Positions 30,576 through 51,209 of a stretch of 54,239 nt of DNA are shown piece after piece. Each line of letters begins with the position of its first letter. Positions within the stretch are counted from its first letter, which is position 1. The position numbers were made by a program, and so were the translations under genes. Location: the NCBI GenBank assembly GCA_902789915.1, contig CADAPW010000001.1, positions 1 to 54,239 on the forward strand, written 5' to 3'. The notes beneath the pieces were generated by a model that saw only the letters and a program-made list of their open reading frames with translations, made no database searches and was not told where the DNA came from. The stretch comes from an uncultured Bacteroidia bacterium. GTDB lineage: Bacteria > Bacteroidota > Bacteroidia > Bacteroidales > F082.

Positions 30576-30586
30576 TTTGTCGATTC

Positions 30587-31786: not shown

Positions 31787-31793
31787 TTAAGCC

Positions 31794-32672: not shown

Positions 32673-32677
32673 CTACC

Positions 32678-33913
32678 ATGCAAAAAAGAATCTGTTGGAA
32701 AAAAGGAATGCGGCTCAGCGAAGAGATTATGAGAGCCTCTGACGAAGCCACTGCCGCTTGGGTAGGCAATGCCTTCGTACTTGCTGCTGCGGGACAATTT
32801 GGCTTGTTTCCCAATTTGCGTCCATTCCACATCGCATTGAATATCAGCAATGGTTTCATCGAAGTGGCATCATTGAGTTGCCTTGCCATCACAAAAGGCG
32901 GCAACCTCATTGATATACTATTCGACTCCAAATACTCCAACCCTATCCCTTGTAAGATTGCTATTCCACAAGGCAGCCTCTCAAGCGAGCTTTTCCTCAC
33001 CGTCAACGTCAACATGGAGCAATGGAAAGAAACCACGGGTGGGTTTGAAGAACCTATTTATGACTTTGGTTTGGTCGATGTTAATAGTCCTGTCTCAGAA
33101 TACTCCTTGCCTATAGCACACCTTATTGACACTGACTTCGGCGGATGGCATGTTGACGAGAGCGACTTCGTACCACCTTGCTTGTTCGTTTCTTCGCATC
33201 AAAACTATGTTCAACTCTTGGAACGGTTCATCCAATGCCTAAAAGAAATCGAAAGTAAAAGCCGAGGTTTGATTCATTCCGAAGCACGGAAAGCCATCAG
33301 GGTATTCTGGCCTATCATTCAGCAAATATTAATTGATGCCGATCGGGGACGCGACTTGATGACCCCCATGTCTTTCTTGGCCGCCATCCAGAAAACCGTG
33401 TGCGCCTTTACCAGTGCTTGCGACCTTGATGAATACCTCAACCTTGCCGATGCCGAAACGTTTAGAAATTATGCATTGACCAATTACAACTACAAGAACG
33501 TTTATAGAATCATTAAAGAGGGATTGGATTATTGTTTTTCCATTAACGAAAAACTCAGTAAGATACAAATCAGTACACCACAAAAGCCAGTCACCAAAAT
33601 GGCAGCACCTTACATCAATGATGATCAACTCATCCAAAACTGTAAGAGTCGCCGCGTAAGCATTCCTGTTGTCAATCCAACTGCTGGATCCACCGTTTTC
33701 TATTCAACTGACGGTAGCGAGCCTTCCATAAAACTTCCAAATAGCGGAGCCATTTCCATCGAAAACGGCTTCAACAAGAAGAAAGCTCCCGAACCCGACA
33801 AGACCATATTCTTGAAACTAAAATCTGTAGGCAGCGGAACCAACAGTGATGTGGCCACTTATACCATCACATTACATAAAGACTACAAGGTTTGGGACGG
33901 TTATGAAATCTGA
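32678..33913 (+). CDS. Candidate T6SS baseplate subunit TssK with a C-terminal CHB_HEX_C-like beta-sandwich
   Basis: 411 aa. The N-terminus ICWKKGMRLSEEIMRASDE resembles the TssK start (W-x-x-G-M-x-L-x-P-x-H-F). The C-terminus AGSTVFYSTDGSEPSIKLPNSGAISIENGF...FLKLKSVGSGTNSDVATYTITL resembles chitobiase/hexosaminidase C-terminal-type domains. Confidence 0.4.
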   Translation: MQKRICWKKGMRLSEEIMRASDEATAAWVGNAFVLAAAGQFGLFPNLRPFHIALNISNGFIEVASLSCLAITKGGNLIDILFDSKYSNPIPCKIAIPQGSLSSELFLTVNVNMEQWKETTGGFEEPIYDFGLVDVNSPVSEYSLPIAHLIDTDFGGWHVDESDFVPPCLFVSSHQNYVQLLERFIQCLKEIESKSRGLIHSEARKAIRVFWPIIQQILIDADRGRDLMTPMSFLAAIQKTVCAFTSACDLDEYLNLADAETFRNYALTNYNYKNVYRIIKEGLDYCFSINEKLSKIQISTPQKPVTKMAAPYINDDQLIQNCKSRRVSIPVVNPTAGSTVFYSTDGSEPSIKLPNSGAISIENGFNKKKAPEPDKTIFLKLKSVGSGTNSDVATYTITLHKDYKVWDGYEI

Positions 33914-34421
33914 CCTGACACAATACATCAGCACCCCGATAACTTTCATCGATGCCGACTCGATGCTCGAATTGAAACACGATCTTGAATCGGAAATCGC
34001 GCTACTCGACAACCTCATCGAACTAATCGTGTTCACCCCACGAGGCAGTTTCCTTGCCGACCCCGAGTTTGGCTTCGAATATTGGAACCACGAATACTCC
34101 AACATTCAATACCAAACCTTCAATAGCGGACAAGGCCTTTCTTTAAAAGGTAACGGTCAGGAAATCACAAAAATCGAGTGCCAAGAAAGCATAAAAAACA
34201 GTCTATGGGCTTACGCGCCGCAACTGAAAAGGGTCAACGTGACCGTCGAACTCAATGCCGCCAAACAGGAAAAACAACAAAGTCAGAAAAAACAATCAAA
34301 ACATCAAATCATCGTCATGGTTGAAGGCGACATCGAAAAAGGCATTGGCATCAGCCATTATAAGAAAGAAGTATCTTTTCTAATTGAGCCCACCGTAAGA
34401 AGACGGGGCCTGCAACAATAA
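33903..34421 (+). CDS. tssE: T6SS baseplate wedge protein TssE (GPW/gp25-like)
   Basis: The ATG at 33903 (MKSDLTQYISTPITF...) overlaps the previous gene by 11 nt. The gp25-like core is LESEIALLDNLIELIVFTPRGSFLADPEFGFEYWNHEY. Confidence 0.65.
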   Translation: MKSDLTQYISTPITFIDADSMLELKHDLESEIALLDNLIELIVFTPRGSFLADPEFGFEYWNHEYSNIQYQTFNSGQGLSLKGNGQEITKIECQESIKNSLWAYAPQLKRVNVTVELNAAKQEKQQSQKKQSKHQIIVMVEGDIEKGIGISHYKKEVSFLIEPTVRRRGLQQ

Positions 34422-34464
34422 CGACACCAGTACAACTCTTCCATCAGCTTTAACGGTACAAACA

Positions 34465-36255
34465 ATGGACATCGAATTAGAAAATAGAGTCAAAGAAGCC
34501 ATAGAGCATTTAAAATCCATATCGATTGACAACATCGACCTACAGCAAATGGATCCTATTGCCAAAATGATGCTCGTTGCCATGCTGAATGAGGTCCAAA
34601 AAACCAACGATCATATCAGTAGCCTGAACGATCGGATTGTAGAGCGCTATTGCACTCACTTCATCCCACGCAATAAAGTGGAAGCGATACCTGCCATTGC
34701 TATGATCAACCCCTCGTTCAAGCCTAACAAAGATGTTGAATCCATCAACATTGGTAGTGAAGCTTCTTTTTCCTATAAGATAAGCACGCGGAAACAACCT
34801 CTGAATTACATTCCCCTGTTCAGCACGACAGCTCTGCCTCATTCGCAACTCTATGTTTTGACAAACCACTTGATGAAATCAAGCAATGGGGCAACACCTA
34901 TTGACATGGGGAACCCTAACCGCCTATGGATTGGCATTCCAACCAAAGTGGAAACCAATAGCTTGAAAGGCCTTACTTTGCTAATAAAAGGTAGCCGTGG
35001 CGTACAACCTGAACATATCATCGTAGGCACCGAGGGTCGAAAGCTTGACTTTGCCACAATCAATGAGTTGGAAAACATCGAAATGGCAGAGCCATTTGAT
35101 GCGCAACAATCCTCGGACAGTTTCTTCTCTTTCATTGAAACTTGGAAGGAAAACATGACCGGCGTTGATGACATGTCATGGATTTGCATCACAGATAGCT
35201 TTAGCGATAGGGACCAGTTCAAACGGAGAGCTTTTCCTCATTCATTCCTGCAATCTCTTGAAAACGAAATCCTCAAGCAATTTAACCCTAATACCTTATG
35301 GATTCAGTTGGTTTTTCCCGAAGGTTTTTCCGTTCCCGATGAGTGCGAAGTGCTGCTCAACGTCATTCCAGTCGTCAATATTGATCTTTGCAGTCTCAGC
35401 CTCACCCAAGCCACGCCTATCGCAAAACTGCAAAAGCAAGATGATTCTTTCTTCTTACGCATACTTGAAACGAGCACTGCGGCAAACAAACAAGGCTTTG
35501 GCATGCTGCAAGATGAAATCATTGTTCGCGACTTTGATGCCGATTGCTATCATAACGGCGATCTCTACCGTGACGTGCACAATTTATACAACCATTTCAT
35601 TGACGACTATTACGCCTTCATCGAATACAACGAGATAAAGGATAGTGAAACCCTAAAGCAATTGCGGGAAATCGTCAACAAGATAGGTAACAGCATCCAT
35701 GATCCCAACAAAAAATTCAAGTTCGACAGTGGCACATACGTGATGAAGAATATGAAGCAGAACACTACTTCATCATCTATCAAAGTCAGCTACATTACCA
35801 CACAAGGCAAAATAGGAAACACCCCGAAAGTAGGAGAGTTATTGGAGAACAAAAAACTGCCTGTGATTGAACAAAAAGTTCCGGTGGTGATTTCGGCTAC
35901 TGGAGGTGCCGACAAAGCTTCGGTTGACGAACGTTACGAATTGTTGCGTTACTACTCGCTTACCAACGACAGGCTTTATACCAAAATGGATGTAGATGCT
36001 TTCTTGCGCAAAGAAATCCTAGCAGAATTTGGCAAAGATGAATTCAAGCGCATCTTCCTTAAAATAAACATCGAAGGAGCAGGGGGAGAAACCAAGTTAC
36101 AGCGCGGGCTTTACATTGACATCGAATTCAAGGACAAGAAAAACTATCAAAAAGCCTCGGATTGTTCATTCGACATCTTGATGTCACAAAAAATCAAAAA
36201 CAAATCGTGCATTGCCATGCCGATTATCGTGAGACTTAAGAATTTGGAGGAATAA
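34465..36255 (+). CDS. tssF: T6SS baseplate subunit TssF
   Basis: 596 aa, directly downstream of tssE. The N-terminal pattern QQMDPIAKMMLVAMLNEVQKTNDHISSLNDRIVERYCTHFIPRNKVEAIPAIAMINPSF parallels the TssF consensus (DP-x-VERLLEG-x-AFL ... P-x-P). Confidence 0.6.
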   Translation: MDIELENRVKEAIEHLKSISIDNIDLQQMDPIAKMMLVAMLNEVQKTNDHISSLNDRIVERYCTHFIPRNKVEAIPAIAMINPSFKPNKDVESINIGSEASFSYKISTRKQPLNYIPLFSTTALPHSQLYVLTNHLMKSSNGATPIDMGNPNRLWIGIPTKVETNSLKGLTLLIKGSRGVQPEHIIVGTEGRKLDFATINELENIEMAEPFDAQQSSDSFFSFIETWKENMTGVDDMSWICITDSFSDRDQFKRRAFPHSFLQSLENEILKQFNPNTLWIQLVFPEGFSVPDECEVLLNVIPVVNIDLCSLSLTQATPIAKLQKQDDSFFLRILETSTAANKQGFGMLQDEIIVRDFDADCYHNGDLYRDVHNLYNHFIDDYYAFIEYNEIKDSETLKQLREIVNKIGNSIHDPNKKFKFDSGTYVMKNMKQNTTSSSIKVSYITTQGKIGNTPKVGELLENKKLPVIEQKVPVVISATGGADKASVDERYELLRYYSLTNDRLYTKMDVDAFLRKEILAEFGKDEFKRIFLKINIEGAGGETKLQRGLYIDIEFKDKKNYQKASDCSFDILMSQKIKNKSCIAMPIIVRLKNLEE

Positions 36256-36260
36256 CGGCC

Positions 36261-37103
36261 ATGAATCCTCTTAGTGAAAAACACCTACAACAGTCCATCC
36301 ACTTATCCGATGTCCATGTTGACACGGCAACGCTGAAAACGAAAACGCTAAAATCACTCAGGGAACTTGGTCCCCAAGCTGACAACGAGTCCGATATTGA
36401 TGTCAGAGCTGCCGCTGCCATGTGCCAATATGCTTATTTTATACTAAGTCCTGGCAATAGTCCGAAAGCGGATTTAATAGATGGCTGGAAGCCTTTACTG
36501 AATGATTCTGAGGTTGACAAGCTGATAGTTCCAGGGTTTCATATGAAACTACAGAACAAATCAAACGGCTTCAGTTCCATGTTTTTCAAAAAGCAAGCCG
36601 ATGGCATTCAATATTATGCCTATTGTACGGTAGGTACAGATGAATTAATAGACTGGGTCTCCAACGGTACCCAGTTTGTCTCAGGACTCGCGACTCAATA
36701 TACCTATTCGGTCCAACTAGCCAAACAAATTGACAGCGCCATTGGCGGCAAAGCCGTACTTTGGTTCATTGGGCACTCTCTTGGCGGAGGCCTTGCTTCT
36801 AATAATTCACTAGCCACCGGAAGACATGCCATCACTTTTAATGCTGCAGGCCTAAATCCTCTACGAGTCAATGCCACATTATTGTTGAACAATGGGAAAG
36901 ACCTTTTCCATCCCATAAAAAGGACAAAACAAATTCACGCTTTCGTGTTAGAGGGCGAGATACTCAACTCTTTCCTCCGTTATTTTGGACAAAGTGCCTA
37001 TGGAGACAAACATGTCATTGACTTTAAACACGATGAAGTGGATTCCTTTAAAAGGCATGCGCTGACGACCGTTTTGGACAAATGGGGAATGAAACACGAT
37101 TAA
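36261..37103 (+). CDS. Class-3 lipase-like alpha/beta hydrolase (GHSLGG); candidate T6SS lipase effector or accessory esterase
   Basis: 280 aa with no signal peptide. Motifs are ...YYAYCTVGTDELIDWVSN... and the nucleophile elbow VLWFIGHSLGGGLASNNS. Confidence 0.6.
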   Translation: MNPLSEKHLQQSIHLSDVHVDTATLKTKTLKSLRELGPQADNESDIDVRAAAAMCQYAYFILSPGNSPKADLIDGWKPLLNDSEVDKLIVPGFHMKLQNKSNGFSSMFFKKQADGIQYYAYCTVGTDELIDWVSNGTQFVSGLATQYTYSVQLAKQIDSAIGGKAVLWFIGHSLGGGLASNNSLATGRHAITFNAAGLNPLRVNATLLLNNGKDLFHPIKRTKQIHAFVLEGEILNSFLRYFGQSAYGDKHVIDFKHDEVDSFKRHALTTVLDKWGMKHD

Positions 37104-37122
37104 GCACAACACAGGACAAACC

Positions 37123-38100
37123 ATGCAAAGCATCCTTGCCGTAATAGCGATTATTGTCTTTTCCTATGGCCTTTTTGCCCAGTCACCCGACGACATCAAG
37201 GCTTATATAGCACAATACAAAACCATGGCTTTACAACAAGAAAAGCTATATGGAATTCCAGCACCTATCACGCTGGCGCAAGGCATTCTTGAGTCAGGAG
37301 CAGGCCAAAGTAAACTCGCCCAAAACGCCAACAACCATTTCGGCATCAAAGCATTAGGGGCGTGGTCGGGCGATATTTATCTCGCTTGGGACGACGAACC
37401 TCAAAAAAGCAAATTCAGGACATACTCCTCTGCCGAGGCTTCCTATACGGACCACTCCCGCCTTATCAAAGACAACCAGCGTTACCAATCTTTATTCAAC
37501 ATCAGTATATACGACTACCGAGGCTGGGCCAACGGTTTGCAAAAAGCAGGCTACGCTACCGCCCAAAACTACGCCAAGGCCCTCATAGGCTACATTGATG
37601 CGTATCAACTCTATACCATCAATGGCGGAGTCAAACTGAAACCCGGAAAAACCGTTGCAATAGCAAGAAACACAACCATTGAAGACCTTTCCAAAGATCA
37701 GCAACTTGTCATTGATGATTCGGAACTCTCTTTGGAAGAAGAAGAGGTAACAACGGTCATACGAAAAGCCGTTGTAGAGATTAATGATGTGAGATGCACC
37801 ATCCTGTATCCTGGCGAAACTTTGGCATCCATCGCCATGAAATACGACATCTCGCCTCTCAAACTGTTGGAATTCAACGAAACCACCGATGAATCCGATC
37901 TCAAACTAGGCGACATTGTATATCTTGAAAAAAAGCATGGCAAGTATAAAGGTTCTCAAGATTTTTACCGAGTAAAAACCGACGACACCTTATACAGCAT
38001 AGCTCAGCAGTTCGGCATCAGGACTTCCAACCTAGCCAAAATGAACCATAAAGACCTATTCTCGCCATTAAAAGAGGGAGAGAAACTTAGACTGAAATAA
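37123..38100 (+). CDS. Secreted peptidoglycan hydrolase: N-acetylglucosaminidase (FlgJ/GH73-like) domain plus two LysM domains
   Basis: The signal peptide is MQSILAVIAIIVFSYGLFAQ. The glucosaminidase motif is YGIPAPITLAQGILESGAGQSKLAQNANNHFGIKA...YAT. LysM-like repeats are YPGETLASIAMKYDISPLKLLEFN and VKTDDTLYSIAQQFGIRTSNLAKMN. Confidence 0.75.
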   Translation: MQSILAVIAIIVFSYGLFAQSPDDIKAYIAQYKTMALQQEKLYGIPAPITLAQGILESGAGQSKLAQNANNHFGIKALGAWSGDIYLAWDDEPQKSKFRTYSSAEASYTDHSRLIKDNQRYQSLFNISIYDYRGWANGLQKAGYATAQNYAKALIGYIDAYQLYTINGGVKLKPGKTVAIARNTTIEDLSKDQQLVIDDSELSLEEEEVTTVIRKAVVEINDVRCTILYPGETLASIAMKYDISPLKLLEFNETTDESDLKLGDIVYLEKKHGKYKGSQDFYRVKTDDTLYSIAQQFGIRTSNLAKMNHKDLFSPLKEGEKLRLK

Positions 38101-38105
38101 CTTTT

Positions 38106-39608
38106 ATGTTAGATATTGAGCAATTCATTCAAACCGACGAACTTTTTGACGGCCATTACAGGCTGCTACGTCCGTTAAGTACCGATGGAGGAACGGCTGA
38201 TGTGTGGCTTGCCCTTGATGTGAATACCATCGACAACTACCCATCGTATGAAGAAAGCGCCCATGCCATTGATGAATCATCGGGGATGCTTGTGGCCATC
38301 AAGATATATCGTCCCAAGAACGCCCTTGATATCGAAGGCGAACAGCGTTTCCGCGAAGAGTTTAAGGTTGCCTTCAACTGTCACCACACCAACCTGCTTC
38401 AACCTACAAGTTTCAACATCTACAAGGAAATGCCCTATCTTGTGCTTCCCTATTGTGAAGCAGGTTCATCAGAACAATTCATAGGGAAAAAACTTCCTAC
38501 CGAAACCGTTTGGAAATTCATCCTTGAAGTAGCTTCGGGCCTTGATCGGCTTCACTCCAATCATCCCCAAATCATCCATCAAGACATCAAACCCGCAAAC
38601 ATCCTTATCGACAGCAACGGCAATTTCACCATCACTGATTTCGGTATCAGCACCAAAAAATCGGACGGACACGATAGTTACTATGATGATGAAAATAGCG
38701 GCACCTTTGCCTATATGGCACCAGAACGTTTCGAGAACAATGCCAAGCCTTCTCCTCAAAGCGACATTTGGGCTTTCGGTGCCACACTTTGTGAGATACT
38801 TACCGGTTCGCTTCCTTTCGGTGAAGAAGGGGGAAAAGCCCAAGCCGAGGGTCTCGGAGTCGCTCCCCCACTCAAAGGTTTGCCAAGAAGTATACAAAAT
38901 CTTATATTGGCATGCCTCCAACTTGAACCTAAAAAACGGCCTTCTGCTCATGAGATCGTGGAGGCGGCACAAAAACGGAGATTCGGCATCAGACCCAACA
39001 AGAATTTGACTTTGTATCTCACTTGTGGCATACTCATTTTGCTTGTGGCTATCATCTTTATTCTGATACCTAAACAGAAAAACGTCCCCAACGGCGAAAA
39101 CGTTGTAAATAATTATAATCAAGCCGTCCAACTTTTATTGGACCCTTCTGATGCAAAAAAAGGCTGGAAAATACTCGACTCGTTAGCTTTTAAAGAAAAC
39201 GACTTTGATGCTATCTTTCTAATGAGTCGATTGTATTTCGCACCATCAGAAGATGAGGACAAGGAAAATGAAAGGATTTTCTATAACCCAGAATGGAAAA
39301 CCATGCGTGAGTACGCAGGTGTCAATACTGACTATAAAAAAGCCCATGATTTATTATGCAAGGCGTTTTCAATCAATGGAAACAATTGTGCCGTGCTTTA
39401 TGAATTAGGATGCGACTACATGTCGTTTGAAAGAGGGTGTGACCAAAACTACAATTATGCCAAATGGTGTTTGATCCAAGCCAGAGAAGTAGCCAACATC
39501 ACCCAAAATGAAAAAGCTAAAGAATATTTAAAAGTAATAGATTGTCTGGATTTTGATGCCGAACCAGAAAAACCCGAAGAATTAATGAATTCAAACGAAA
39601 TAAAATAA
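38106..39608 (+). CDS. Hanks-type Ser/Thr protein kinase, single-pass membrane protein with an extracytoplasmic Sel1/TPR-like domain
   Basis: 500 aa. Kinase motifs are VAIKIY (VAIK), the catalytic loop IIHQDIKPANILID, ITDFGIS (DFG), YMAPE and DIWAFG. The TM is LTLYLTCGILILLVAIIFILIP. C-terminal Sel1-like repeats include AIFLMSRLYF... and KKAHDLLCKAFSINGNNCAVLYELGCDYMSFERGCDQNYNYAKWCL. Confidence 0.85.
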   Translation: MLDIEQFIQTDELFDGHYRLLRPLSTDGGTADVWLALDVNTIDNYPSYEESAHAIDESSGMLVAIKIYRPKNALDIEGEQRFREEFKVAFNCHHTNLLQPTSFNIYKEMPYLVLPYCEAGSSEQFIGKKLPTETVWKFILEVASGLDRLHSNHPQIIHQDIKPANILIDSNGNFTITDFGISTKKSDGHDSYYDDENSGTFAYMAPERFENNAKPSPQSDIWAFGATLCEILTGSLPFGEEGGKAQAEGLGVAPPLKGLPRSIQNLILACLQLEPKKRPSAHEIVEAAQKRRFGIRPNKNLTLYLTCGILILLVAIIFILIPKQKNVPNGENVVNNYNQAVQLLLDPSDAKKGWKILDSLAFKENDFDAIFLMSRLYFAPSEDEDKENERIFYNPEWKTMREYAGVNTDYKKAHDLLCKAFSINGNNCAVLYELGCDYMSFERGCDQNYNYAKWCLIQAREVANITQNEKAKEYLKVIDCLDFDAEPEKPEELMNSNEIK

Positions 39609-39615
39609 GAAATCC

Positions 39616-41157
39616 ATGTTTAAAAAAGCACTATGTCTATTGATACTTATGACTGGTTTTGTGGCCTCCGTTTGCGCTTCGACCGTTAAATGGTTGATTG
39701 CTCCAAAATATGATGCCATCAGCTATTTCAGCGAGACCCTCTTTAAATGTAAAATAGATGGAAAATCACAACTTGTTGATTTAAAGGGGCAAACTTTGTT
39801 GCCTCGCGCTGCCGATTCCATCACAGACTTTTCAGAAGGTATCGCCCTAGTTCTTGAGAAAACAAATAAGCATTACAAAGTCGTAGGATTTGTCAAAGAA
39901 TCTGACCATAGTTATTTATCCATTAACGGGAACTATTATGCAGGAATGTATTCTTTCTTCTCAGAAGGGCTTATAGCCCTTGCCGATGCAAATACCGATT
40001 TATTTGGTTATCTCAATGACAAAGGGGAAATGTTGCCACAAGAGGCTCTCCATTTCAATTATCCTAAAGCCCGACCTTTTATCAAAGGATGGGCTTCTGT
40101 TGAACAGGCAAATAAGAATCAGACAACGATATATATCAACAAGCAAGGAAAAACCATGAATTTAAATGGTTTTCATCGTGGGAAAGTGGTCTTGGGTTCA
40201 AGTTTCAACGCATCTGGAGAAGCATTAATAACCTACTATGGCGATGACAACGCAATCATTGACACCAAAGGAAACATCAATAGAAAATACAAGCGTTTGG
40301 AAGGGACAACACCTGTTCGCATTTGTGATTTTGCTTTTGATGAAAACGGAAGAGGTTGTGTTGCAAAACCCATTCCTCCGCTCAATGAAAAAATGTCCAT
40401 TTTTTCTGAAAACGGCGTTTTCGGATATGTGGAAGAAGAAAAGACTATGGTTCCTGCACAATTTACTTATGCGGGTTCTTTTTTTGCCAATGGGTGTGCC
40501 ATAGCTGCCATTGACAACAAGTATGGTGTGCTTTCGCTCGTTGAAGGAGATTTCAAAACAGCATTGGACCTTGACAAGAAAGTCAAAAACAACAAAGGCT
40601 ATGTTTTCACACTTCACATCCCACCGGCGATAGCACAACAAGCAGAGATAAAGTTTGACAACGGTGATGGCATACTACGCCCGATTTCTCTGCAAGACAG
40701 CACTTATAAATTCTCAAAAAAAGAGAAGGAATTTACCATCAGGGCACAAATAACCATTGACGACCTACTGCTTTGGGATGAAACCATCATAAGGAAACCA
40801 GAAGAATTGCCGTTCATTATAATAGGACCATCTTGTGACGACACCCGCGCCAATAACAATAATCTTGTCAAGGTGAAAACAATCGTAAAGAATAATACCG
40901 AAAATGACGTTACTGTGACATGCTCCTTTACCGCCAATTTCGATGAAAGCACGAAAAACAGCTTTGACAAGAATTCTGATCTTAACCCTTCAACTATCAT
41001 AGCTGCAAAAAAATCAGAAGAGTTTTCTGTTGATATATTTGTGAAAAAATCAGAAAAAGTAACCGTATCTGTTTCCATCAAAATTGACGGAAAACAGTAT
41101 AAGAGACAAAAGGAATTTGAAATAAGACCTGTCTATTCTTTCCAGTTAAATCACTAA
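39616..41157 (+). CDS. Secreted WG-repeat (KWG-like) protein
   Basis: 513 aa. The signal peptide is MFKKALCLLILMTGFVASVCAS. Repeated segments of the type F-SEG-IAL....K-G-I(V)D--G--L-P are seen: DFSEGIALVLEK...YKVVGFV, FFSEGLIALADANTDLFGYLNDKGEML, FSENGVFGYVEEEKTMVPAQF and FFANGCAIAAIDNKYGVLS. Confidence 0.55.
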   Translation: MFKKALCLLILMTGFVASVCASTVKWLIAPKYDAISYFSETLFKCKIDGKSQLVDLKGQTLLPRAADSITDFSEGIALVLEKTNKHYKVVGFVKESDHSYLSINGNYYAGMYSFFSEGLIALADANTDLFGYLNDKGEMLPQEALHFNYPKARPFIKGWASVEQANKNQTTIYINKQGKTMNLNGFHRGKVVLGSSFNASGEALITYYGDDNAIIDTKGNINRKYKRLEGTTPVRICDFAFDENGRGCVAKPIPPLNEKMSIFSENGVFGYVEEEKTMVPAQFTYAGSFFANGCAIAAIDNKYGVLSLVEGDFKTALDLDKKVKNNKGYVFTLHIPPAIAQQAEIKFDNGDGILRPISLQDSTYKFSKKEKEFTIRAQITIDDLLLWDETIIRKPEELPFIIIGPSCDDTRANNNNLVKVKTIVKNNTENDVTVTCSFTANFDESTKNSFDKNSDLNPSTIIAAKKSEEFSVDIFVKKSEKVTVSVSIKIDGKQYKRQKEFEIRPVYSFQLNH

Positions 41158-41170
41158 TCTTCTAATAATT

Positions 41171-41833
41171 ATGCGTAAAAAATTGTTGCTAACAATTCTG
41201 TTGCTGTGCGGATGCAGTATTGCCTTTTCCCAGTACAACTCAGATTCTTGGGTTTGGCCAGACGAAAACCAAAATGATGCTTTGTCGTTTCATTTGGAAG
41301 TTGGGCCAAAACTTGGGGCAGGAATGTGTATTGCCACAAAAACCAACCTTTTTGATACCAAATTCAAAAATGGGTTTTCATACCAAGCTGGTCTATCCGT
41401 CAAAATGGGTTTAAGACACCAGCTTTCCAAGACACCCAAAGGCATTGAAAGATTAGGTTTAGGCTTTGAAGCCTTGTTGAGTGGAAGAAACATCCGTACA
41501 GGGAAAGAAAACCTGTCGATGCTTTGTCTAGACATTCCTATCTTATTGCATTTTTTAATCACCTCCAATTTCTCTTTGGAAGCAGGGGTCACTTTTGTCC
41601 AACCGCTCAAAGTCAATCCAACGGTTTTGCAAATGCAAAACATTGTTCTCAATACAGGTGATTTGAAGCCCGCTGATGTAATGCTATCTGTAGGCGCTAA
41701 TTATCAAATCATCGCTGGTTTGGAGCTTGGTCTTCGGTGCAATATTGGTACCTGTCCGATTGCAGGAAACCTTGGCACTCGTTTAAATACAATCATGCTT
41801 TCAGCAGACTACCTGTTCCCACTTCTAAAATAA
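41171..41833 (+). CDS. Small outer-membrane beta-barrel (porin-family) protein
   Basis: 220 aa. The signal peptide is MRKKLLLTILLLCGCSIAFSQ. It shows alternating strands and ends ...MLSADYLFPLLK. It is similar in type to the 773-1423 product. Confidence 0.5.
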   Translation: MRKKLLLTILLLCGCSIAFSQYNSDSWVWPDENQNDALSFHLEVGPKLGAGMCIATKTNLFDTKFKNGFSYQAGLSVKMGLRHQLSKTPKGIERLGLGFEALLSGRNIRTGKENLSMLCLDIPILLHFLITSNFSLEAGVTFVQPLKVNPTVLQMQNIVLNTGDLKPADVMLSVGANYQIIAGLELGLRCNIGTCPIAGNLGTRLNTIMLSADYLFPLLK

Positions 41834-41851
41834 CAAAAAACTTCGTCAAAA

Positions 41852-43999
41852 ATGAAAAACAAGATTTATACCATTTTTCTGCTTGGCCTTTCCGTATTAC
41901 TGCTTTCAACCTGCAAAAATCCCGAGATTGGGTATGAGACGTTCGCAATTACAGATGAAAACGTTGAACCAGAAGTATATGGCGTAAAGGTAAACGGATC
42001 CTTTTCTTTTTCAGGCAATGTGCAAGAAATGAAAATGAAAATAGCTACAGATGAGTCACTGACAGATGCCACTGATTATTCCATAATTATTGACAATCAA
42101 ACATTTTCGGGCGAAATAGACGGACTGGAACCTAACACAACCTATTACTATTGTTACGATATTGATTTTGGATGGAAAGACGACTATTTGACTGACATTA
42201 ATAGCTTCACCACCCTCAAAGGGCTTCCAACGGTAAAAACGCTTGAAACAATCGCTTTATATGATGCTTCATTCCGTATAAAGTGCAAAGTGACTTCAGA
42301 TGGCGGATCCGAGATAATGGAACGAGGCATCTACTGGTGTATCGGGAATACCGATGATAACCATCCCAATCTGGGTGACAACAAGATAATACACGATGAA
42401 AACGGAGTGGGTGAATATTTCTGCTTGATGGATAACCTGGAGCCAAACACCACCTATTCTGTCAAAGCATACGCCAAAAATAGAATTGGAATAAGTTTGG
42501 CACAAGAAGTGTTGCACTTTAAAACCCACGACAATCCCAGCGATTCTCTCATGATAGTAACTAATTGTAATCCTCCGTCTGGAGGTACGGCAACAGGAGG
42601 AGGTACCTTCACTTCCGGCCAGTCCTGCACCGTCACAGCCTCCGCCGCCACAGGCTACACCTTCACCAACTGGACAGAAGACAATGAAGTGGTCTCGCAT
42701 GATGCCAACTATACTTTCACCGTGGACCGCAACCGCACTTTGATGGCCAACTTCACCCTTAACACCTATTCCATCACTGCCATAGCCGACCCGGTAGCGG
42801 GCGGCACGGTGAGCGGCGCTAATACTTACAACTATGGCGCTTCATGCACCTTAACAGCGACAGCTTACACGGGTTATACCTTTGTCAATTGGACGAAGAA
42901 CGGCACCCAAGTCTCCACCGATGCCAGCTACATTTTCATCGTGACAACAGCGGAAGAGTATGTGGCTCATTTCCATCCAAAAACATACACCATCAGTGTT
43001 TCGGCAGACCCAAGCGATGGAGGAACTGTCACTGGAAATGGCAATTATACCTATGGACAAAGTTGTACAATAACTGCCACCGCAAATGATGGATTTGTAT
43101 TTAGTCATTGGGAAGAAGAAGACCTTACGGTATCCTCAAATGCTTCATATACTTTTATGGTAAATGGAAACAGAAACCTTGAGGCCAAATTTGACCAAAC
43201 ATATCCTGTCGGGGCAATAAATGGACGCTTCACTATAAACCCCAACGGTGAACAAGTGTATTTCTCACGAGGCAACCTTCAATATATTGGCAGTGCAAAC
43301 ACTCCCTATTGGAAATTTGCTGACAAACAATGGAGCTATTTGGGTAATCATGGACAAGGAAGTGAAAATCAACAAGCAGACCGCGATTTATTTGGTTGGG
43401 GAACAAGTGGTTGGAATTGCGGAAACAAGTTCTATCAGCCATACGATACTGATATTTCCAGTGGAGAATTCTATGGGCCTGGTAACAACAACGACTTGAC
43501 TGGCCAATATGCCAATTCTGATTGGGGATACAATGCTATCTCTAATGGAGGGGCAACAAGCGGCCTATGGCGCACTCTGTCCAATTCTGAATGGAACTAT
43601 GTGTTTTTTGAAAGGAACACCCCTTCAGGAATACTTTTCGCGAAAGCAAACGTTTCGGGTGTTAATGGTATAATTATTATACCAGACACTTGGAATTCTA
43701 GCTACAATTTAAGTGCAGTCAATAACCAAGGAGCCACTTTTGTGTCAAATGTTATTTCAGATTCAGATTGGACTAACAAGTTGGAGAAGAATGGAGCTGT
43801 ATTCCTGCCTGTTGCTGGTTGGCGATTTGGACATTCAGTAACGGAAGAAGGTTCTAAAGGCTATTATTGGACATCTTCACACCATGATACAATAGATAAC
43901 ACATCTTTTTCCCTATCTATTGCTGACGGGGCCTTTAGCACGAATCAAATGGGCAGACATGCTGGTTTGTCTGTGCGCTTAGTCTATCCTATTCCATGA
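41852..43999 (+). CDS. Lipoprotein with four Listeria-Bacteroides (InlB B-repeat-like) repeats and a C-terminal FISUMP-like domain
   Basis: The lipobox-like start is MKNKIYTIFLLGLSVLLLSTC. Four ~75-aa repeats are present: GGTATGGGTFTSGQSCTVTASAATGYTFTNWTEDNEVVS, GGTVSGANTYNYGASCTLTATAYTGYTFVNWTKNGTQVS, GGTVTGNGNYTYGQSCTITATANDGFVFSHWEEEDLTVS, and one more upstream. C-terminal motifs are LWRTLSNSEWNYVF, AVFLPVAGWR, GYYWTSS and GLSVRLV. Confidence 0.6.
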   Translation: MKNKIYTIFLLGLSVLLLSTCKNPEIGYETFAITDENVEPEVYGVKVNGSFSFSGNVQEMKMKIATDESLTDATDYSIIIDNQTFSGEIDGLEPNTTYYYCYDIDFGWKDDYLTDINSFTTLKGLPTVKTLETIALYDASFRIKCKVTSDGGSEIMERGIYWCIGNTDDNHPNLGDNKIIHDENGVGEYFCLMDNLEPNTTYSVKAYAKNRIGISLAQEVLHFKTHDNPSDSLMIVTNCNPPSGGTATGGGTFTSGQSCTVTASAATGYTFTNWTEDNEVVSHDANYTFTVDRNRTLMANFTLNTYSITAIADPVAGGTVSGANTYNYGASCTLTATAYTGYTFVNWTKNGTQVSTDASYIFIVTTAEEYVAHFHPKTYTISVSADPSDGGTVTGNGNYTYGQSCTITATANDGFVFSHWEEEDLTVSSNASYTFMVNGNRNLEAKFDQTYPVGAINGRFTINPNGEQVYFSRGNLQYIGSANTPYWKFADKQWSYLGNHGQGSENQQADRDLFGWGTSGWNCGNKFYQPYDTDISSGEFYGPGNNNDLTGQYANSDWGYNAISNGGATSGLWRTLSNSEWNYVFFERNTPSGILFAKANVSGVNGIIIIPDTWNSSYNLSAVNNQGATFVSNVISDSDWTNKLEKNGAVFLPVAGWRFGHSVTEEGSKGYYWTSSHHDTIDNTSFSLSIADGAFSTNQMGRHAGLSVRLVYPIP

Positions 44000-44006
44000 T
44001 TTAAAC

Positions 44007-44864
44007 ATGAAACTTAGGATAGTAGCCAAAACGGATGCGGGCAAGGAACGCGACCAAAACGAAGATGCTTTTATCTTCTGTCCCGATCTTTCTATCTCGG
44101 ATTGGACACTAAACAAAGCATCCGCGACTCTTGGTCCTTTTGGTTGCCTCTTGTGTGTAGCTGACGGCATAGGAGGTGCCAATAACGGAGAAATCGCATC
44201 CAGACTTGCTATAGATTCTATCAAACGATCATTTTCTGATAGTGTTGAAGTGTCTAAAGCCGCTTCTTCTGATTCAAACATCAAAGATTTCCTTACTTAT
44301 GCCGTCAAAGAAGCTGATTTGACTATAAAAAACTATGCCATTGACCACCCAGATAGCATTGGGCTTGGAACCACTATCGTCGTTTGCTGGATACTTAACA
44401 ACACTGCATACATTGCCTGGTGTGGCGACAGTAGATGTTACCTATACAATCCTAAAACAGGGCTTTTGCCTCTTACCAAAGACCACTCTTATGTCCAAGA
44501 GCTTATTGACAAAGGAGAATTGACCGAGGACGAAGCTTTTCACCACCCCGATAACAATATCATCACGAAAGCACTTGGTGATATGGATTTACAAACACTT
44601 CCTGACATTGTCACCCATGTTGTTGAACCTGAAGATACTATATTGCTTTGCAGTGATGGTTTGTGTGGCTATTGTAGCAATCAATCCATTGAAGAAGTCG
44701 TTCGCAACAATTACTCAGATATGAATCATTGTTGCAAGAAGTTGCTTCAACTTGCCTTAGATACAGGAGGATATGACAATATTTGCATAGTATTAGCTTC
44801 CTTATCAAAAAAAAAACCTGCTCTGATCAACTTTTTCAAGAATTGGATTTCACCCTCAAAATAG
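44007..44864 (+). CDS. PP2C-family Ser/Thr protein phosphatase
   Basis: 285 aa. PP2C motifs are KTDAGKERDQNEDAF, LLCVADGIGGANNGEIAS, GTTIVVCW, AWCGDSRCYL, LLCSDGL and GGYDNICIVL. It is the last gene of the plus-strand block. Confidence 0.85.
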   Translation: MKLRIVAKTDAGKERDQNEDAFIFCPDLSISDWTLNKASATLGPFGCLLCVADGIGGANNGEIASRLAIDSIKRSFSDSVEVSKAASSDSNIKDFLTYAVKEADLTIKNYAIDHPDSIGLGTTIVVCWILNNTAYIAWCGDSRCYLYNPKTGLLPLTKDHSYVQELIDKGELTEDEAFHHPDNNIITKALGDMDLQTLPDIVTHVVEPEDTILLCSDGLCGYCSNQSIEEVVRNNYSDMNHCCKKLLQLALDTGGYDNICIVLASLSKKKPALINFFKNWISPSK

Positions 44865-44889
44865 CTAGATAAATGCAATTAACCTTAGC

Positions 44890-44928
44890 AAATCCTCTTG
44901 TCAATCGACGGGAGGATTTTTTGTTTTT
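44890..44928 (+). terminator. Rho-independent terminator closing the T6SS block
   Basis: The stem is aaatcctc (44890-44897) paired with gaggattt (44912-44919), with a 14-nt loop, followed by ttttttgttttt. A second, weaker hairpin (agccatg / catggct, 44952-44985) plus a T8 run follows. Confidence 0.55.
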
Positions 44929-44971
44929 GACATGGTTTTGTTTATTTTTGTAGCCATGATGATTTCAGTGT

Positions 44972-45001
44972 TTTGAAGCATGGCTTTTTTTTCTATTTTT
45001 G
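44972..45001 (+). promoter_or_regulatory. Candidate Bacteroides-type promoter upstream of the GH97 gene
   Basis: TTTG at 44972-44975 is followed 18 nt later by TAttTTTG at 44994-45001, which matches TAnnTTTG. The ATG is at 45024. Confidence 0.35.
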
Positions 45002-45519
45002 CCATCATAAAAACTATATCATCATGAAAAAACTCCTCCTCTCTGCGCTCCTCATGCTTTCCATGAGCGCTTTCGCCCAAAAGCAATACATCCTGCAATC
45101 GCCCGACAAGGACATCACCGTCACCATTGAGGCGGGCGAGCAACTGACATACGCCGTCACGCATGGAAACACTTGTGTGTTAACACCTTCGTCCATCGGC
45201 ATGAAACTCGCCGACGGCACTATGCTCGGCACGAAACCCGTATAAAAAGGCGCAAATCCCTGAAGTTTACAATGAGTTGGCTCTAACTTTCAAAGGCAAC
45301 TACAAGGTCTTTTTCCGCGCCTACGATGCTGGCGTGGCCTATCGTTTCGAGACCGACTTCCGTAAGCCTATCGTCATCGAAGACGAAACGGCTGACTTCA
45401 ACTTCGATGCGGATTATCATGCTCTCGTCCCGTTTGTCTTGAGACGTGCCGGACAAAAGGGTGCCCTCATCAGCCAGCAGTTCTACAGCTCGTTTGAGAA
45501 CACTTACACCGACACTATC

Positions 45520-45569
45520 TTGAGCCACATGGACCCTCAAAAGCTTGAGCCACATGGACCCTCAAAAGC
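45520..45569. repeat. Perfect 25-bp tandem duplication (2 copies) inside the GH97 gene
   Basis: The unit ttgagccacatggaccctcaaaagc occurs at 45520-45544 and again at 45545-45569. Removing one copy restores ...TDTILSHMDPQKLAFLPLLVELNDGKK... Confidence 0.95.
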
Positions 45570-46225
45570 TCGCCTTCCTGCCCTTGTTAGTCGAACTCAA
45601 TGACGGCAAGAAAGTCGTCATCACCGAAGCCGACTTGGAGGATTTCCCTGGCTTGTATCTCCGCAATGCCAACGGCAAATACGGTCTCTCCGCCGTCCAT
45701 GCCGGTTATCCCAAAGTCCGTGAACAAGGCGGTCACAACAACCTACAATGGATGGTGAAAGAACGCGAGGACTATGTGGCCAAGACCGATGGAAAACGTG
45801 CATTCCCATGGCGTATCGTCACCATCTCGGAGAACGACAAGGAATTAGCCAACAACGACTTAGTCTATCTTTTGGCCTCACCCAACCGCATCGGCGACGT
45901 CTCTTGGATTAAGCCTGGCAAGGTGGCCTGGGACTGGTGGAACTGGTGGAACCTTTACGGCGTTGACTTCGCAGCAGGCATCAACAACGAGACCTACAAA
46001 TACTTCATTGATTTTGCCAGCCAATACGGCATCGAATATGTCATCCTCGACGAAGGTTGGGCCGTCAACAAGCAAGCCGACCTCTTCCAGGTGATTCCCG
46101 AAATCAACTTACCGGAACTTGTCAAATACGGTGCCGAACGCAATGTAGGCCTCGTGCTTTGGGCCGGTTACGCCGCCATGGACAAAGACATGGAACACGT
46201 ATGCCAGCACTATTCCGAAATGGGC

Positions 46226-46251
46226 ATAAAAGGCTTCAATAAAAGGCTTCA
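46226..46251. repeat. Perfect 13-bp tandem duplication (2 copies) inside the GH97 gene
   Basis: The unit ataaaaggcttca occurs at 46226-46238 and 46239-46251. Removing one copy restores the conserved EMGIKGFKVDFMDGDDQ. Confidence 0.95.
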
Positions 46252-47019
46252 AGGTCGACTTTATGGACGGTGACGATCAGATGATAGTCGACTTTTACTA
46301 CCGCATGGCCGCAACTGCCGCCAAATACCATCTTTTCATCGATTTCCACGGTGCCTACAAACCCACGGGACTGAACCGCACCTATCCCAATGTGCTCAAC
46401 CACGAGGGCGTGTACGGCATGGAACAGGAACGTTGGGACTCCAAGAGCGATTTTGTCACCAACGAAGTCACCATACCTTTCATCCGCATGTTGGCCGGAC
46501 CTATGGACTACACCCAAGGAGCCATGAGAAATGCGGGAAAATACAGCTTCACCGCCATCTACACCGAGCCGATGAGCCAAGGCACACGCTGCCGACAACT
46601 GGCTGAATATGTGATATATGAGTCGCCATTCAACATGCTGTGCGACAGCCCGAGCAACTACATAAGAGAAGACGAATGCACGCGATTCATCGCCAGCGTG
46701 CCGACCACGTGGGACGAAACCATCGTCTTGGATGGAAAAGTGGGCGAATATCTCGTGATAGCCCGCCGCAAGGACTTCCGCTGGTATGTAGGTGCCATCA
46801 CCAACTGGGAGGAGCGCGACCTCGTGCTCGACCTGTCGGTGTTGCCCAACTTCGGTGCCAAGTCGGGACGTATCTTCCGTGACGGCATCAACGCCAACCG
46901 TGCCGCCCGCGACTATGTAGCGGAGCAAATTCAGGTGATGGGCAACAAGGTGAAAGTGCATCTCGCTGAAGGCGGCGGTGCCGTGATGGTGTTCTAATTC
47001 AGCGTAATAAACAAAACAA

Positions 47020-49954: not shown

Positions 49955-51209
49955 ATGAATAAAGGAAGCCTAAAAAGCACCATCGCCGTCTCACTGACCA
50001 ACTACTTAGATGCCGGTGCCATCGTTGCCGGAGCCAGTGGCCTGACGTTGTGGCAGAAATACCTGGGCCTCACCGAGGTGCATCTCGGCTGGCTCAACTT
50101 CATCAGCGCCAACTGCTTGGGTGCCGCCCTCGGTGCCATCATTGGCGGTTTCTTGGCCGACAAATACGGACGCAAGTTCATCTACACCTACAACCTGCTC
50201 GTCTACATGGTGGGCGTGCTGCTCATCATGCTCTCCGTCAGCTTCCCGATGCTGTTGGCGGGATTCTTACTGTATCTCCCAAATGTCGTGGGGCTTCGGC
50301 CCGATGATCATCCTGCTGTTGGGCATGTTCTTCGCTCCCGACGGTTATCTGTTCGGCTGGGTCGAAAGCATAGCGCACACCTTCGGCGGCGACGGCTTGT
50401 CCACAGAGGCCGTCAACGTGTTCAGCTCGCGCATCGTCTTCTTCTCATTGCTGATTGTGGCCTTTATCGCTTGGAACTTGCAGCGCAAACTGGAGGAAAG
50501 CACCGAGTGGAAAGCCAGCCAAGAGGTAGCAAAGGCGAAAGGAGAAGATACTGGTCTTTGGCACGCTTTCAAGGTGTTGTTCTCCAACAAAACCGCTATC
50601 AAGACCGCCTGTTTCTTGGCTGTCATTTACCTCACCTGGAACCTCGTAGCCTCGGTGTTGGGCTTCTTCCAACCTCATATCTATGAAACGGCAGGTGGCA
50701 TCAGCAACGAACAAGCCAACTGGATGAACTGCATCCAATGGGCCATCATCGTGTTCGTCACCTTCCTGCTCTCCAAGATCATCGACAGGACAAGCCATAA
50801 ACTAATCTATATCTTAGGTCTGCTCTTTGCCATCAGTGCCTGGGTAATTATTGTGGCCGTCGGCGTGAATGGCACCGCAGGGCTGTGGCTGTTCACCATC
50901 CTCTGGGGCATCGAAGGCGGTATGTCGGTGCAAATCTTCTACGCCTTATGGGGCTCGGAGCTGTTTCCCGCCAAGTTCCGCGCTGGCGCACAAGGACTGA
51001 TGTTCTTTGTCGTGAGGGGGCTGTCGGCTGTATGGGGGCTGGTGTTCGCTTTCATCTATGGTGAAAACGGCGAAGGCTTCACCGTGGCCGCCTATTGCAT
51101 GATTGGCTTGCTGCTCATCTCGTTAATCGTGGGCGTCATCGGCTGCCCTAATACCCGCGGCAAGTCGCTCGCACATATTACCAAGGAACGGTATGGAGAG
51201 GAGTATTAA
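49955..51209 (+). pseudogene. MFS-type sugar transporter with an apparent +1 frame break near 50262-50285
   Basis: About 105 N-terminal codons read sensibly in the frame of ORF 49955 (...GGFLADKYGRKFIYTYNLLVYMVGVLLIMLSVSFPMLLAGFLL). That frame then becomes Arg-rich nonsense. The remaining ~310 codons read sensibly only in the frame of ORF 50121, from ...ISQMSWGFGPMIILLLGMFF to ...CPNTRGKSLAHITKERYGEEY. This could be a genuine pseudogene or a sequence error. Confidence 0.6.

Follow-up and report, generated by a model that had tools for sequence, protein, structure and literature searches.

The locus considered here raises the question of whether a kinase and a phosphatase encoded at the 3' end of a type VI secretion system (T6SS) gene cluster control the machine, and whether they would do so through a RING protein that carries a forkhead-associated (FHA) fold. 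It lies in a window of 54,239 nucleotides (contig CADAPW010000001.1) from a metagenome-assembled genome (MAG) of an uncultured member of the Bacteroidales, and all coordinates given below are positions in this window. Threonine phosphorylation is an established pathway in T6SS-i, where PpkA, PppA, Fha1/TagH and TagQRST are known from the Pseudomonas aeruginosa H1-T6SS, Agrobacterium, Serratia and Acidovorax. T6SS-iii, the type found in the window, is the dominant contact-dependent weapon of gut Bacteroidales, and we know of no post-translational regulator of T6SS-iii in Bacteroidota. An initial annotation of the window had drawn the parallel to PpkA and PppA, and had proposed that the FHA-like domain reads a mark made by the kinase and that the RING domain then recruits a charged E2. 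The explanation we favour, with about even confidence, is that kinase and phosphatase form an accessory, reversible Ser/Thr-phosphorylation switch on a Bacteroidales cluster that combines T6SS-iii with a ubiquitin-like protein (Ubl) system, in the manner of PpkA and PppA, and that the FHA-fold domain serves as a phospho-independent docking module. The features that carry this argument are the following.

38106-39608, + strand: membrane Hanks-type Ser/Thr kinase, non-RD (HQD), 500 amino acids (aa), from a Pkinase match, motif reading and a transmembrane (TM) scan
38262-38963, + strand: kinase domain, aa 53-286
38997-39089, + strand: TM helix of the kinase, aa ~298-328
39090-39605, + strand: periplasmic helical domain of the kinase, aa 329-500
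44007-44864, + strand: cytoplasmic PP2C (PPM) Ser/Thr phosphatase, 285 aa, last gene of the operon
44890-44919, + strand: terminator-like hairpin with a 13-bp stem and 5 G-C pairs, then TTTGTTTTTG up to 44929
28197-30575, + strand: vWA-RING-6TM-FHA protein, 792 aa, from an AlphaFold2 (AF2) model and Foldseek
28290-29231, + strand: vWA-like domain of this protein, aa 32-345, with a TM segment following at aa 358-399
29424-29561, + strand: RING domain of type C3H2C3, aa ~410-455
29625-30239, + strand: six TM helices, aa 477-681
30246-30569, + strand: FHA-fold domain, aa 684-791, from Foldseek and an isolated-domain Pfam search

The kinase and phosphatase genes belong to a single + strand array of T6SS and Ubl genes that extends from ~7.9 kb to 44.9 kb of the window. 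All genes from 28197 to 44864 lie on the + strand and are spaced by 5-43 nucleotides or overlap. The hairpin at 44890-44919, which starts 26 nucleotides past the PP2C stop codon, is the top-listed terminator-like site in a scan of 28000-45600 and has the longest stem. Because of the short gaps and overlaps and the terminator directly after the PP2C gene, the stretch from 28197 to 44864 reads as one operon. Judged from this layout, it is well supported that the pair shares an operon with the machine genes and that the hairpin marks the end of the T6SS operon. A sigma-70 promoter scan was set aside as uninformative for Bacteroidota. A membrane Hanks kinase and a PP2C phosphatase in the T6SS operon had already been called in the initial annotation, and the tight gene run, its terminator and the intact catalytic motifs described below bear this out.

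The kinase matches Pfam Pkinase over aa 53-286 (149.5 bits, E 1.5e-43). Its catalytic set is complete, comprising K66 (VAIK), H158-Q-D160-I-K162-P-A-N165 (HQDIKPAN), D178-F-G and APE, and 106-109 of 111 related kinase open reading frames (ORFs) retain residues K66, D160, N165 and D178. PpkA and PknB are RD-type (HRD) kinases that are regulated by activation-loop phosphorylation. The window kinase has HQD in place of the HRD loop, and 103 of the 111 relatives likewise have Gln ahead of the catalytic Asp, with Arg in only one of them, so the whole clade is non-RD. A very short linker joins the kinase domain to a single hydrophobic helix (aa 298-328), and the last ~170 aa are helical with Sel1-like patterns. 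The extracytoplasmic Sel1-like domain assigned earlier thus stands as a periplasmic tail after the TM helix, whereas its Sel1 match is sub-threshold (E 0.024, 15.7 bits against a cut-off of 30.7); that the tail is Sel1-like is plausible, not established. The best NCBIfam match of the protein is Stk1/PknB-type, and no PASTA domain was found in it.

In 26 of 41 informative related loci (e.g. L014, L015, L027 and L051), the membrane kinase occurs as two paralogues that differ in the type of their periplasmic C-terminal domain. Either the catalytic Asp or the activation segment is missing from paralogues P0170, P0187 and P0181, which look like pseudokinases.

The phosphatase matches Pfam PP2C (66.7 bits, E 3.4e-18) and NCBIfam Stp1/IreP (215 bits). 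Its metal-binding motifs are all there (R15, NED18-20, DG53-54 of DGxGG, GDSR140-143, DG217-218 of SDG, and DN257-258), each at least 95% conserved across 59 related sequences, and the TM scan found no hydrophobic segment in it.

Related loci were gathered through the kinase. We kept 80 metagenome loci from human-gut and other assemblies, found with a kinase alignment, and one Muribaculaceae MAG locus (L001) found with a single kinase sequence. The resulting 81 kinase-centred loci were compared with all window proteins by tblastn, and counts refer to loci with enough flanking sequence. In 23/23 informative loci the E1 gene lies upstream of the kinase, accompanied by the RING gene wherever the flank extends that far, and T6SS/Ubl genes are present in all 23 loci with enough upstream sequence. 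A glucosaminidase-LysM gene directly precedes the first kinase in 57/67 loci, and a PP2C gene lies at most 7 kb downstream of the last kinase in 55/61. In the six exceptions, longer inserts push the PP2C gene past the fetched flank, and for two of them (L003/L079 and L009/L024) a PP2C gene was found on the same contig. A Phocaeicola sp. assembly has the same gene order from Ubl to kinase, and the gene order is also shared by the Muribaculaceae MAG. The kinase clade lives in this cluster type, although the reverse does not follow from kinase-centred loci, and in gut and rumen Bacteroidales the kinase/PP2C cassette is a fixed feature of the cluster's 3' end. With both genes encoded within the T6SS cluster and conserved with it, the analogy to PpkA and PppA is a reasonable one.

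The RING protein begins with a signal or TM helix, followed by a vWA-like alpha/beta domain that is predicted to be periplasmic. When the full-length AF2 model (36-sequence alignment; predicted local distance difference test (pLDDT) score 73) was searched with Foldseek, the vWA-like domain matched integrin I domains, VWF A1, CMG2, a B. fragilis BatA-like protein and NorD, and FHA matches were also recovered. The RING ligands C414, C417, C431, H433, H436, C439, C447 and C454 are invariant in the 36 sequences, and I421, P423 and W440, which occupy E2-contact positions of eukaryotic RINGs, are conserved. Pfam RING matches are all sub-threshold (17-21 bits) and the ligase role is putative; P0001, a cluster representative 99% identical to the window protein, carries a precomputed Prok-RING_1 match. 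Because an even number of TM helices (six) separates them, the RING and FHA-like domains are both placed in the cytoplasm, which is the predicted side of the kinase domain, PP2C, E1 and E2 as well. The protein has more than 700 close homologues, some of which are named 'FHA domain-containing protein' by NCBI.

At E<=0.01, the full-length RING protein has no Pfam FHA match. Searched in isolation, the C-terminal ~113 residues match PF00498 in 7 of the 8 representatives of the family (best E 4.5e-4), and the window copy aligns to positions 1-67 of 67 of the hidden Markov model (HMM) at E 0.032 and 15.1 bits, under the gathering threshold of 20.7. The best Pfam match of the isolated window domain is Yop-YscD_cpl, the cytoplasmic domain of YscD from the type III secretion system (T3SS), at E 0.0024, and a sequence-profile search against PDB sequences gave nothing even at E<=10. 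An AF2 model of aa 672-792 (24-sequence alignment, pLDDT 70.8) yielded 55 Foldseek matches in the PDB at E<=1e-3. Each of the 50 matches listed (E 1.3e-5 to 8e-4) is an FHA domain, among them those of DgcB, CEP170, GarA/OdhI, Ki67, Rad53 FHA1, MDC1 and CT664, and TM-scores against stand-alone FHA-domain chains are 0.54-0.71. Since every listed match is an FHA domain, we take the eleven-stranded FHA fold predicted for the C-terminus of the RING protein to be real.

This domain appears to be the only one of its kind in the locus. No other ORF of the window has a Pfam FHA match, a result that covers the window ORFs at the sensitivity of Pfam, which a domain this divergent in another protein could evade. 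A family HMM and tblastn found just one FHA-like domain in each related locus. In two-kinase locus L051, the genes between the kinases and PP2C encode BACON/OMP, Big_2 and WG-repeat proteins and no FHA domain. These searches agree with the earlier statements that the locus has no free-standing FHA protein and that its sole FHA-like domain is the C-terminus of the RING protein.

Canonical FHA domains share three motifs: GR follows strand 3, and SxxH and NG precede strands 5 and 7, respectively (PMC3162421). In a profile alignment to the FHA domain of GarA, whose sequence was checked against PDB entries, G716-M717 of the RING protein falls on G80-R81, A734-K-E-H737 on S95-R-R-H98, and T756-K757 on N117-G. 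The window domain therefore has Met for Arg, Ala for Ser and TK for NG, and of these motif residues it keeps Gly716 and His737. That its canonical binding residues are substituted had been noticed at the outset, and the same holds for all close homologues. Among 24 non-redundant ones, Ala734 is invariant, the His is kept, the residue after Gly is never Arg (it is M, K, I or A) and the NG positions are variable. The same substitutions recur in 23 related loci, down to 52% overall identity. The FHA-like domain is more conserved than any other part of the RING protein, with 65-99% identity against 52-99% over the full length. The kinase-linked clade has a Lys-rich loop between strands 4 and 5 ('WEKSNKVAKEH'), and the apical-loop Lys residues are K702, K729, K732 and K735.

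A search of 1.84 billion representative proteins with a full-length profile returned 395 clusters at E<=1e-3, and most of the best 150 matches listed are 750-840 aa long with the same architecture. Residues were counted in 125 sequences, namely 124 representatives with the domain plus the window copy. Gly716 is universal and is followed by K in 62 sequences, R in 32 and M in 11. The Ser of SxxH is present in only 12/125, and GR, S and H occur together in 4/125. The hallmarks of the family are K702 (123/125), W703 (122/125) and W727 (124/125), within K-W and W-[DE] motifs, and this conservation marks K702-W703 and W727 as a putative family-specific surface. From its residues, the FHA-fold domain is probably not a canonical phosphothreonine (pThr) reader. 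Annotating or modelling it as one is unwarranted without biochemical proof, despite the names given to some homologues by NCBI.

Distant loci of the RING-FHA family were looked up and rechecked by tblastn (E<=1e-3). Three of these (L083/L084, L087 and L088) encode Ubl, E2, two or three more genes, RING-FHA, E1 and TssK/E/F-like proteins, with housekeeping genes on the flanks; a JAB-like gene is among the extra genes in L083/L084. There is no kinase or PP2C match at E<=1e-3 in these three, nor in L085 and L090, whose contigs end soon after TssF. Clusters with a vWA-RING-6TM-FHA protein that lack the cassette imply that the FHA-like domain has a function for which no cluster-encoded kinase is needed. 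The copies in L087 and L088 are nearer to canonical FHA domains (P0387 reads 'TIGRSVDC...ISPVH' and has a precomputed PF00498 match), unlike the kinase-linked clade, in which both Arg and Ser are lost. The FHA-fold domain predates the kinase/PP2C cassette, and the cassette is a lineage-specific accessory layer added 3' to an older Ubl/T6SS-iii cluster.

The L087 (1796-12388) and L088 (1669-12409) clusters are each a compact module of ~10 genes encoding E1, an unknown protein, TssK/TssE/TssF-like proteins, Ubl, E2, the products of two further genes and vWA-RING-FHA. Within the fetched flanks, where the module sits between housekeeping genes, no sheath, Hcp, VgrG, ClpV, kinase or PP2C gene was found. 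In both, a baseplate-like set travels alone with the Ubl system.

In the mechanism we favour, an envelope signal would be sensed by the Sel1-like periplasmic domain of the kinase together with the WG-repeat, outer-membrane and surface-repeat proteins encoded beside it, in parallel to TagQRST feeding PpkA. The signal would activate the kinase, which would phosphorylate a cytoplasmic part of the machine and thereby promote (or block) assembly or firing, and PP2C would reverse the action of the kinase. Its substrate may be the RING or JAB membrane protein, the tail of E2 or a baseplate protein, all of them candidates. The FHA-fold domain would dock in the membrane platform, like the corresponding domains of YscD/MxiG and EssC, and would be placed like the TssN domain that binds TssK. 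Any coupling between phosphorylation and the Ubl system would run through direct phosphorylation of a component rather than through FHA-pThr recognition.

By analogy with other secretion machines, the most likely role of the FHA-fold domain is docking within the membrane platform, independent of phosphorylation. A docking role is the likelier one because the domain predates the cassette, lacks the pThr-binding residues and stands at the end of a TM bundle like that of TssN. MxiG-N has an FHA fold without the canonical residues and does not bind pThr (PMC3162421), and the N-terminal FHA domains of EssC, for which a search yielded no binding partner, also lack these residues (PMC4925161). The window domain shows the same combination, with a fold devoid of pThr residues on the predicted cytoplasmic face of a membrane protein that is encoded among T6SS genes. 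TssN of B. fragilis comprises a TM bundle and a ~100-aa C-terminal cytoplasmic domain that docks TssK (PMC10781749). The RING protein shows a TssN-like layout at aa 477-792, with six TM helices and a ~110-aa cytoplasmic beta domain. A TM scan found no separate multi-TM TssN-like gene in the window, and the C-terminal half of the RING protein may, by analogy, be a fused functional equivalent of TssN.

The remainder of the array supplies the other proteins on which this and competing proposals draw. Its 5' part encodes, in order, NusG-like, ClpV, TssB-like, TssC, two Hcp and VgrG proteins (TssB-like and TssC by Bacteroidota-type Pfam models), followed by a DUF4280/PAAR-like toxin, Tle1 with DUF2931, a protein with a type IX secretion system (T9SS) sorting tail and a coiled-coil protein. 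The middle encodes a 108-aa protein ending in VPIAG, E2, two exported or membrane proteins, the membrane JAB, the 792-aa RING protein, E1 and a 292-aa protein. The 3' part consists of the genes for TssK, TssE-like, TssF-like, a lipase-motif protein, glucosaminidase-LysM, the kinase, a WG-repeat protein, an outer-membrane barrel, a Flg_new_2 repeat protein and PP2C. An NCBIfam search yielded no names for the putative membrane-complex genes. The individual features are as follows.

23279-23605, + strand: putative ubiquitin-like protein, 108 aa, translation ending ...VPIAG and then stop
23626-24300, + strand: E2-like protein, UQ_con 27.4 bits against a cut-off of 27
26539-28218, + strand: JAB/MPN+ metalloprotease, 559 aa, with JAMM motif HSHPGLGVFFSNSD at aa 330, a TM segment at aa 137-170 and a Prok-JAB match at E 0.036
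30587-31786, + strand: E1-like ThiF-family adenylating enzyme, ThiF 171 bits
37123-38100, + strand: glucosaminidase-LysM, an exported N-acetylglucosaminidase and peptidoglycan hydrolase with two LysM domains (Glucosaminidase 119 bits, LysM 61 bits), directly 5' of the kinase
39616-41157, + strand: WG-repeat (PF14903) protein, WG_beta_rep 53 bits, N-terminal hydrophobic segment at aa 1-28, exported, directly 3' of the kinase
41171-41833, + strand: outer-membrane beta-barrel-like protein, OMP_b-brl_2 E 8.7e-5, under the cut-off, with an outer-membrane barrel gene at the same place in related loci
41852-43999, + strand: repeat protein with Flg_new_2/InlB B-repeat (148 bits), PKD-like and fn3-like segments, found in a subset of related loci

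Within the Ubl set, the 108-aa protein has a ready-made C-terminal Gly and no Pfam family match, and its position just before E2 is kept in L082, L083, L085 and L090. The JAB enzyme that the initial annotation had invoked does exist, as the membrane-anchored product of 26539-28218. It has an extracytoplasmic N-terminal part of ~136 aa and a Thr-rich cytoplasmic juxtamembrane stretch, and its orthologues in related loci are 700-1090 aa long. The 292-aa ORF after E1 (31794-32672) was rejected as a JAB candidate, having neither a JAMM motif nor a Pfam match. Beside the kinase, the WG-repeat protein is a candidate periplasmic co-sensor and the repeat protein at 41852-43999 is probably a cell-surface protein. 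In L051, too, the kinase nearest to PP2C has a WG-repeat gene after it. In some related loci, such as L051 (14278-16704), a hybrid histidine kinase (HisKA-HATPase-REC-Hpt) is encoded directly 3' of PP2C.

Among the rival explanations, the phosphodegron-like scheme of the initial annotation has the kinase marking a T6SS component or the E3 itself, the FHA-like domain reading this mark, the RING domain bringing in the Ubl-charged E2, and PP2C together with JAB resetting the system, which would make the RING protein a bacterial counterpart of RNF8, CHFR and Dma1. Such a scheme is encouraged by the union of an FHA fold and a RING on one polypeptide, both predicted to be cytoplasmic like the kinase domain, and by the co-encoding of kinase, PP2C, E1, E2, Ubl and JAB, which are conserved jointly in the gut clade. 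The domain is also the only FHA fold in the locus, is under strong purifying selection (65-99% versus 52-99% identity) and has a Lys-rich loop between strands 4 and 5. However, three phosphate-contact residues are replaced in every close homologue (Arg by Met, Lys, Ile or Ala; Ser invariably by Ala; Asn variably), and a Ser-to-Ala change at this position abolishes binding in canonical FHA domains such as those of Rad53 and GarA. The FHA sequence score is under the Pfam threshold, and the protein family works in clusters that have no kinase or PP2C. The copies in those clusters are more canonical than the kinase-linked ones, which is the opposite of what the scheme predicts. The recruitment of E2 through an FHA-read kinase mark is thus not supported, and we regard the scheme as unlikely. 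A version without canonical recognition strikes us as improbable; in it, the vWA-RING-6TM-FHA protein would be a phospho-regulated membrane Ubl ligase in the T6SS-iii platform whose Lys-rich FHA loops read the mark of the non-RD kinase non-canonically, and envelope sensing would gate Ubl conjugation and thus assembly, firing or recycling.

Kinase-less clusters retain the entire Ubl set, from which it follows that phosphorylation is not generally required for the Ubl cascade. This speaks against kinase and PP2C acting directly on that cascade (with E2, the RING protein or the membrane JAB as the target, for instance in disordered stretches rich in Thr), with the FHA-like domain serving only as a scaffold. 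We doubt this proposal, which comes purely from a reading of the window sequences, even though the kinase is co-conserved with E1 and the RING protein in the gut clade, all catalytic domains lie on the cytoplasmic face, and Thr-rich stretches occur beside the JAB TM segment ('NPTTTNENDTG...RRKTTSV') and in the C-terminal tail of E2 ('STPDDDDKPIPTAPTPQDAPPQNTT'). Direct control of the E3 by the kinase is possible but unsupported. An envelope- or peptidoglycan-stress module of the PASTA-kinase/Stp1 type, controlling glucosaminidase-LysM or wall remodelling and only incidentally adjacent to the T6SS, would suit the place of the kinase directly after the glucosaminidase-LysM gene in 57/67 loci, the Stk1/PknB-type and Stp1/IreP best NCBIfam matches, and the hybrid histidine kinase after PP2C in L051. 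Yet the kinase has no PASTA domain, the pair lies within the T6SS operon, where gaps are single-digit and the terminator is common to all genes, and T6SS/Ubl genes occur in all 23 loci with enough upstream sequence; we consider such a module very unlikely.

Several points also weigh against a PpkA/PppA-like switch with a phospho-independent FHA fold. The non-RD catalytic loop and the near absence of a juxtamembrane linker mean that regulation of the kinase may differ from that of PpkA. Because the loci were gathered by kinase similarity, the co-occurrence of the kinase is partly by construction. Only five distant clusters with enough flank were sampled, and in three of these (L083/L084, L087 and L088) it is firm that kinase and PP2C are missing. 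The proteins named as kinase substrates are candidates only, and T6SS control by the kinase is read from the genes. Finally, the Lys-rich apical loops of what is the best-conserved domain may bind an anionic or phosphorylated ligand non-canonically, and it is exactly in these loops that the AF2 model is least confident.

Kinase/phosphatase control in T6SS-i, FHA-RING ligases in eukaryotes and FHA-fold scaffolds in T3SS and in secretion systems of type VII (T7SS) are already known, and the window system resembles each of them in part. As in the PpkA/PppA pathway, a cytoplasmic PP2C and a membrane-bound Hanks kinase with a domain in the periplasm are encoded inside a T6SS cluster, and the module is accessory, being present in a subset of systems only. 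The exported and outer-membrane proteins encoded beside the kinase recall TagQRST and could have a role in sensing. Unlike that pathway, the window system is a T6SS-iii of Bacteroidota, its kinase is non-RD (HQD) with a helical, Sel1-like periplasmic domain whereas that of PpkA is vWA, and a stand-alone canonical FHA protein comparable to Fha1 was not found in the window. Many related loci have two kinase paralogues, and the cluster includes Ubl, E1, E2, RING and JAB, which also sets it apart from T6SS-i.

Eukaryotic FHA-RING ligases include RNF8, CHFR and yeast Dma1/Dma2, of which RNF8 and CHFR bind pThr via GR, the Ser of SxxH, and NG. The window protein likewise joins an FHA fold and a RING on one polypeptide, with E2, E1 and Ubl encoded in the cluster. 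Its order is reversed (RING, six TM helices, FHA), it is embedded in the membrane and carries a vWA domain in the periplasm, and it lacks the GR, SxxH-Ser and NG residues on which pThr-dependent recruitment by RNF8 and CHFR depends. The resemblance to YscD/MxiG/PrgH of T3SS and EssC/EccC of T7SS lies in a cytoplasmic-side FHA fold, devoid of the canonical pThr residues, on an inner-membrane component. In contrast to YscD/MxiG and EssC, where it is N-terminal, the domain is C-terminal in the window protein, is fused to vWA and RING domains, and has its own K-W and W-[DE] hallmarks; common descent with the YscD and EssC families is not evident beyond the FHA clan. Burroughs, Iyer and Aravind reportedly predicted prokaryotic systems with RING, E1, E2, JAB and Ubl in 2011, and the window RING, through the precomputed match of P0001, is of the Prok-RING_1 type of such systems. 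According to a preprint, Deinococcus DRA0331-0334 is a bacterial operon for vWA, Ser/Thr kinase, FHA and PP2C proteins (bioRxiv 10.64898/2026.01.23.701218). The window encodes the same four kinds of domain together and differs in that vWA, RING and FHA are fused in one polytopic membrane protein, the FHA domain is degenerate and the operon is that of a T6SS-iii.

The Bacteroidales entries of a 2026 review of T6SS accessory factors are limited to the uncharacterised TagA, TagB and TagC, and PP2C and ubiquitin go unmentioned there (PMC13584744). The literature searched, which included this review, the T6SS-iii membrane-complex paper and the GA1-3 survey, does not describe a T6SS-iii cluster with a kinase/PP2C pair or a Ubl system. 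The cluster type is widespread and combines an intact kinase and phosphatase with a full complement of Ubl, E1, E2, RING and JAB, all of them tied to membrane proteins. Should the pair gate firing, it would offer a handle on the timing of attack by gut Bacteroidales. Should phosphorylation and Ubl ligation be coupled, the cluster would provide the first bacterial example of phospho-ubiquitin crosstalk within a secretion machine.

Some further features of the window touch on the array and its surroundings. Between the TssF-like and glucosaminidase genes, a 280-aa ORF (36261-37103) was rejected as TssG because it has a GHSLGG lipase/esterase motif and is not kept in most related loci; it is probably a variable effector. 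The T6SS array opens with a NusG/KOW-like gene (7898-8521), reminiscent of the UpxY-type operon-specific antiterminators of Bacteroides, and an IS4-family DDE transposase gene (6540-7685) lies just 5' of it. A large repeat protein with a C-terminal T9SS sorting domain (20119-21951) is encoded just 5' of the Ubl gene and has counterparts in L085 (1-4398) and L090 (1857-4124). The conservation of such a protein in the T6SS cluster hints at a T9SS-exported surface component of this T6SS class. Beyond the terminator, a GH97 glycoside hydrolase is broken into four consecutive ORFs (44973-46997) and a sugar transporter of the major facilitator superfamily into two overlapping ORFs (49955-51209), each of which represents either a frameshifted pseudogene or a MAG assembly error.

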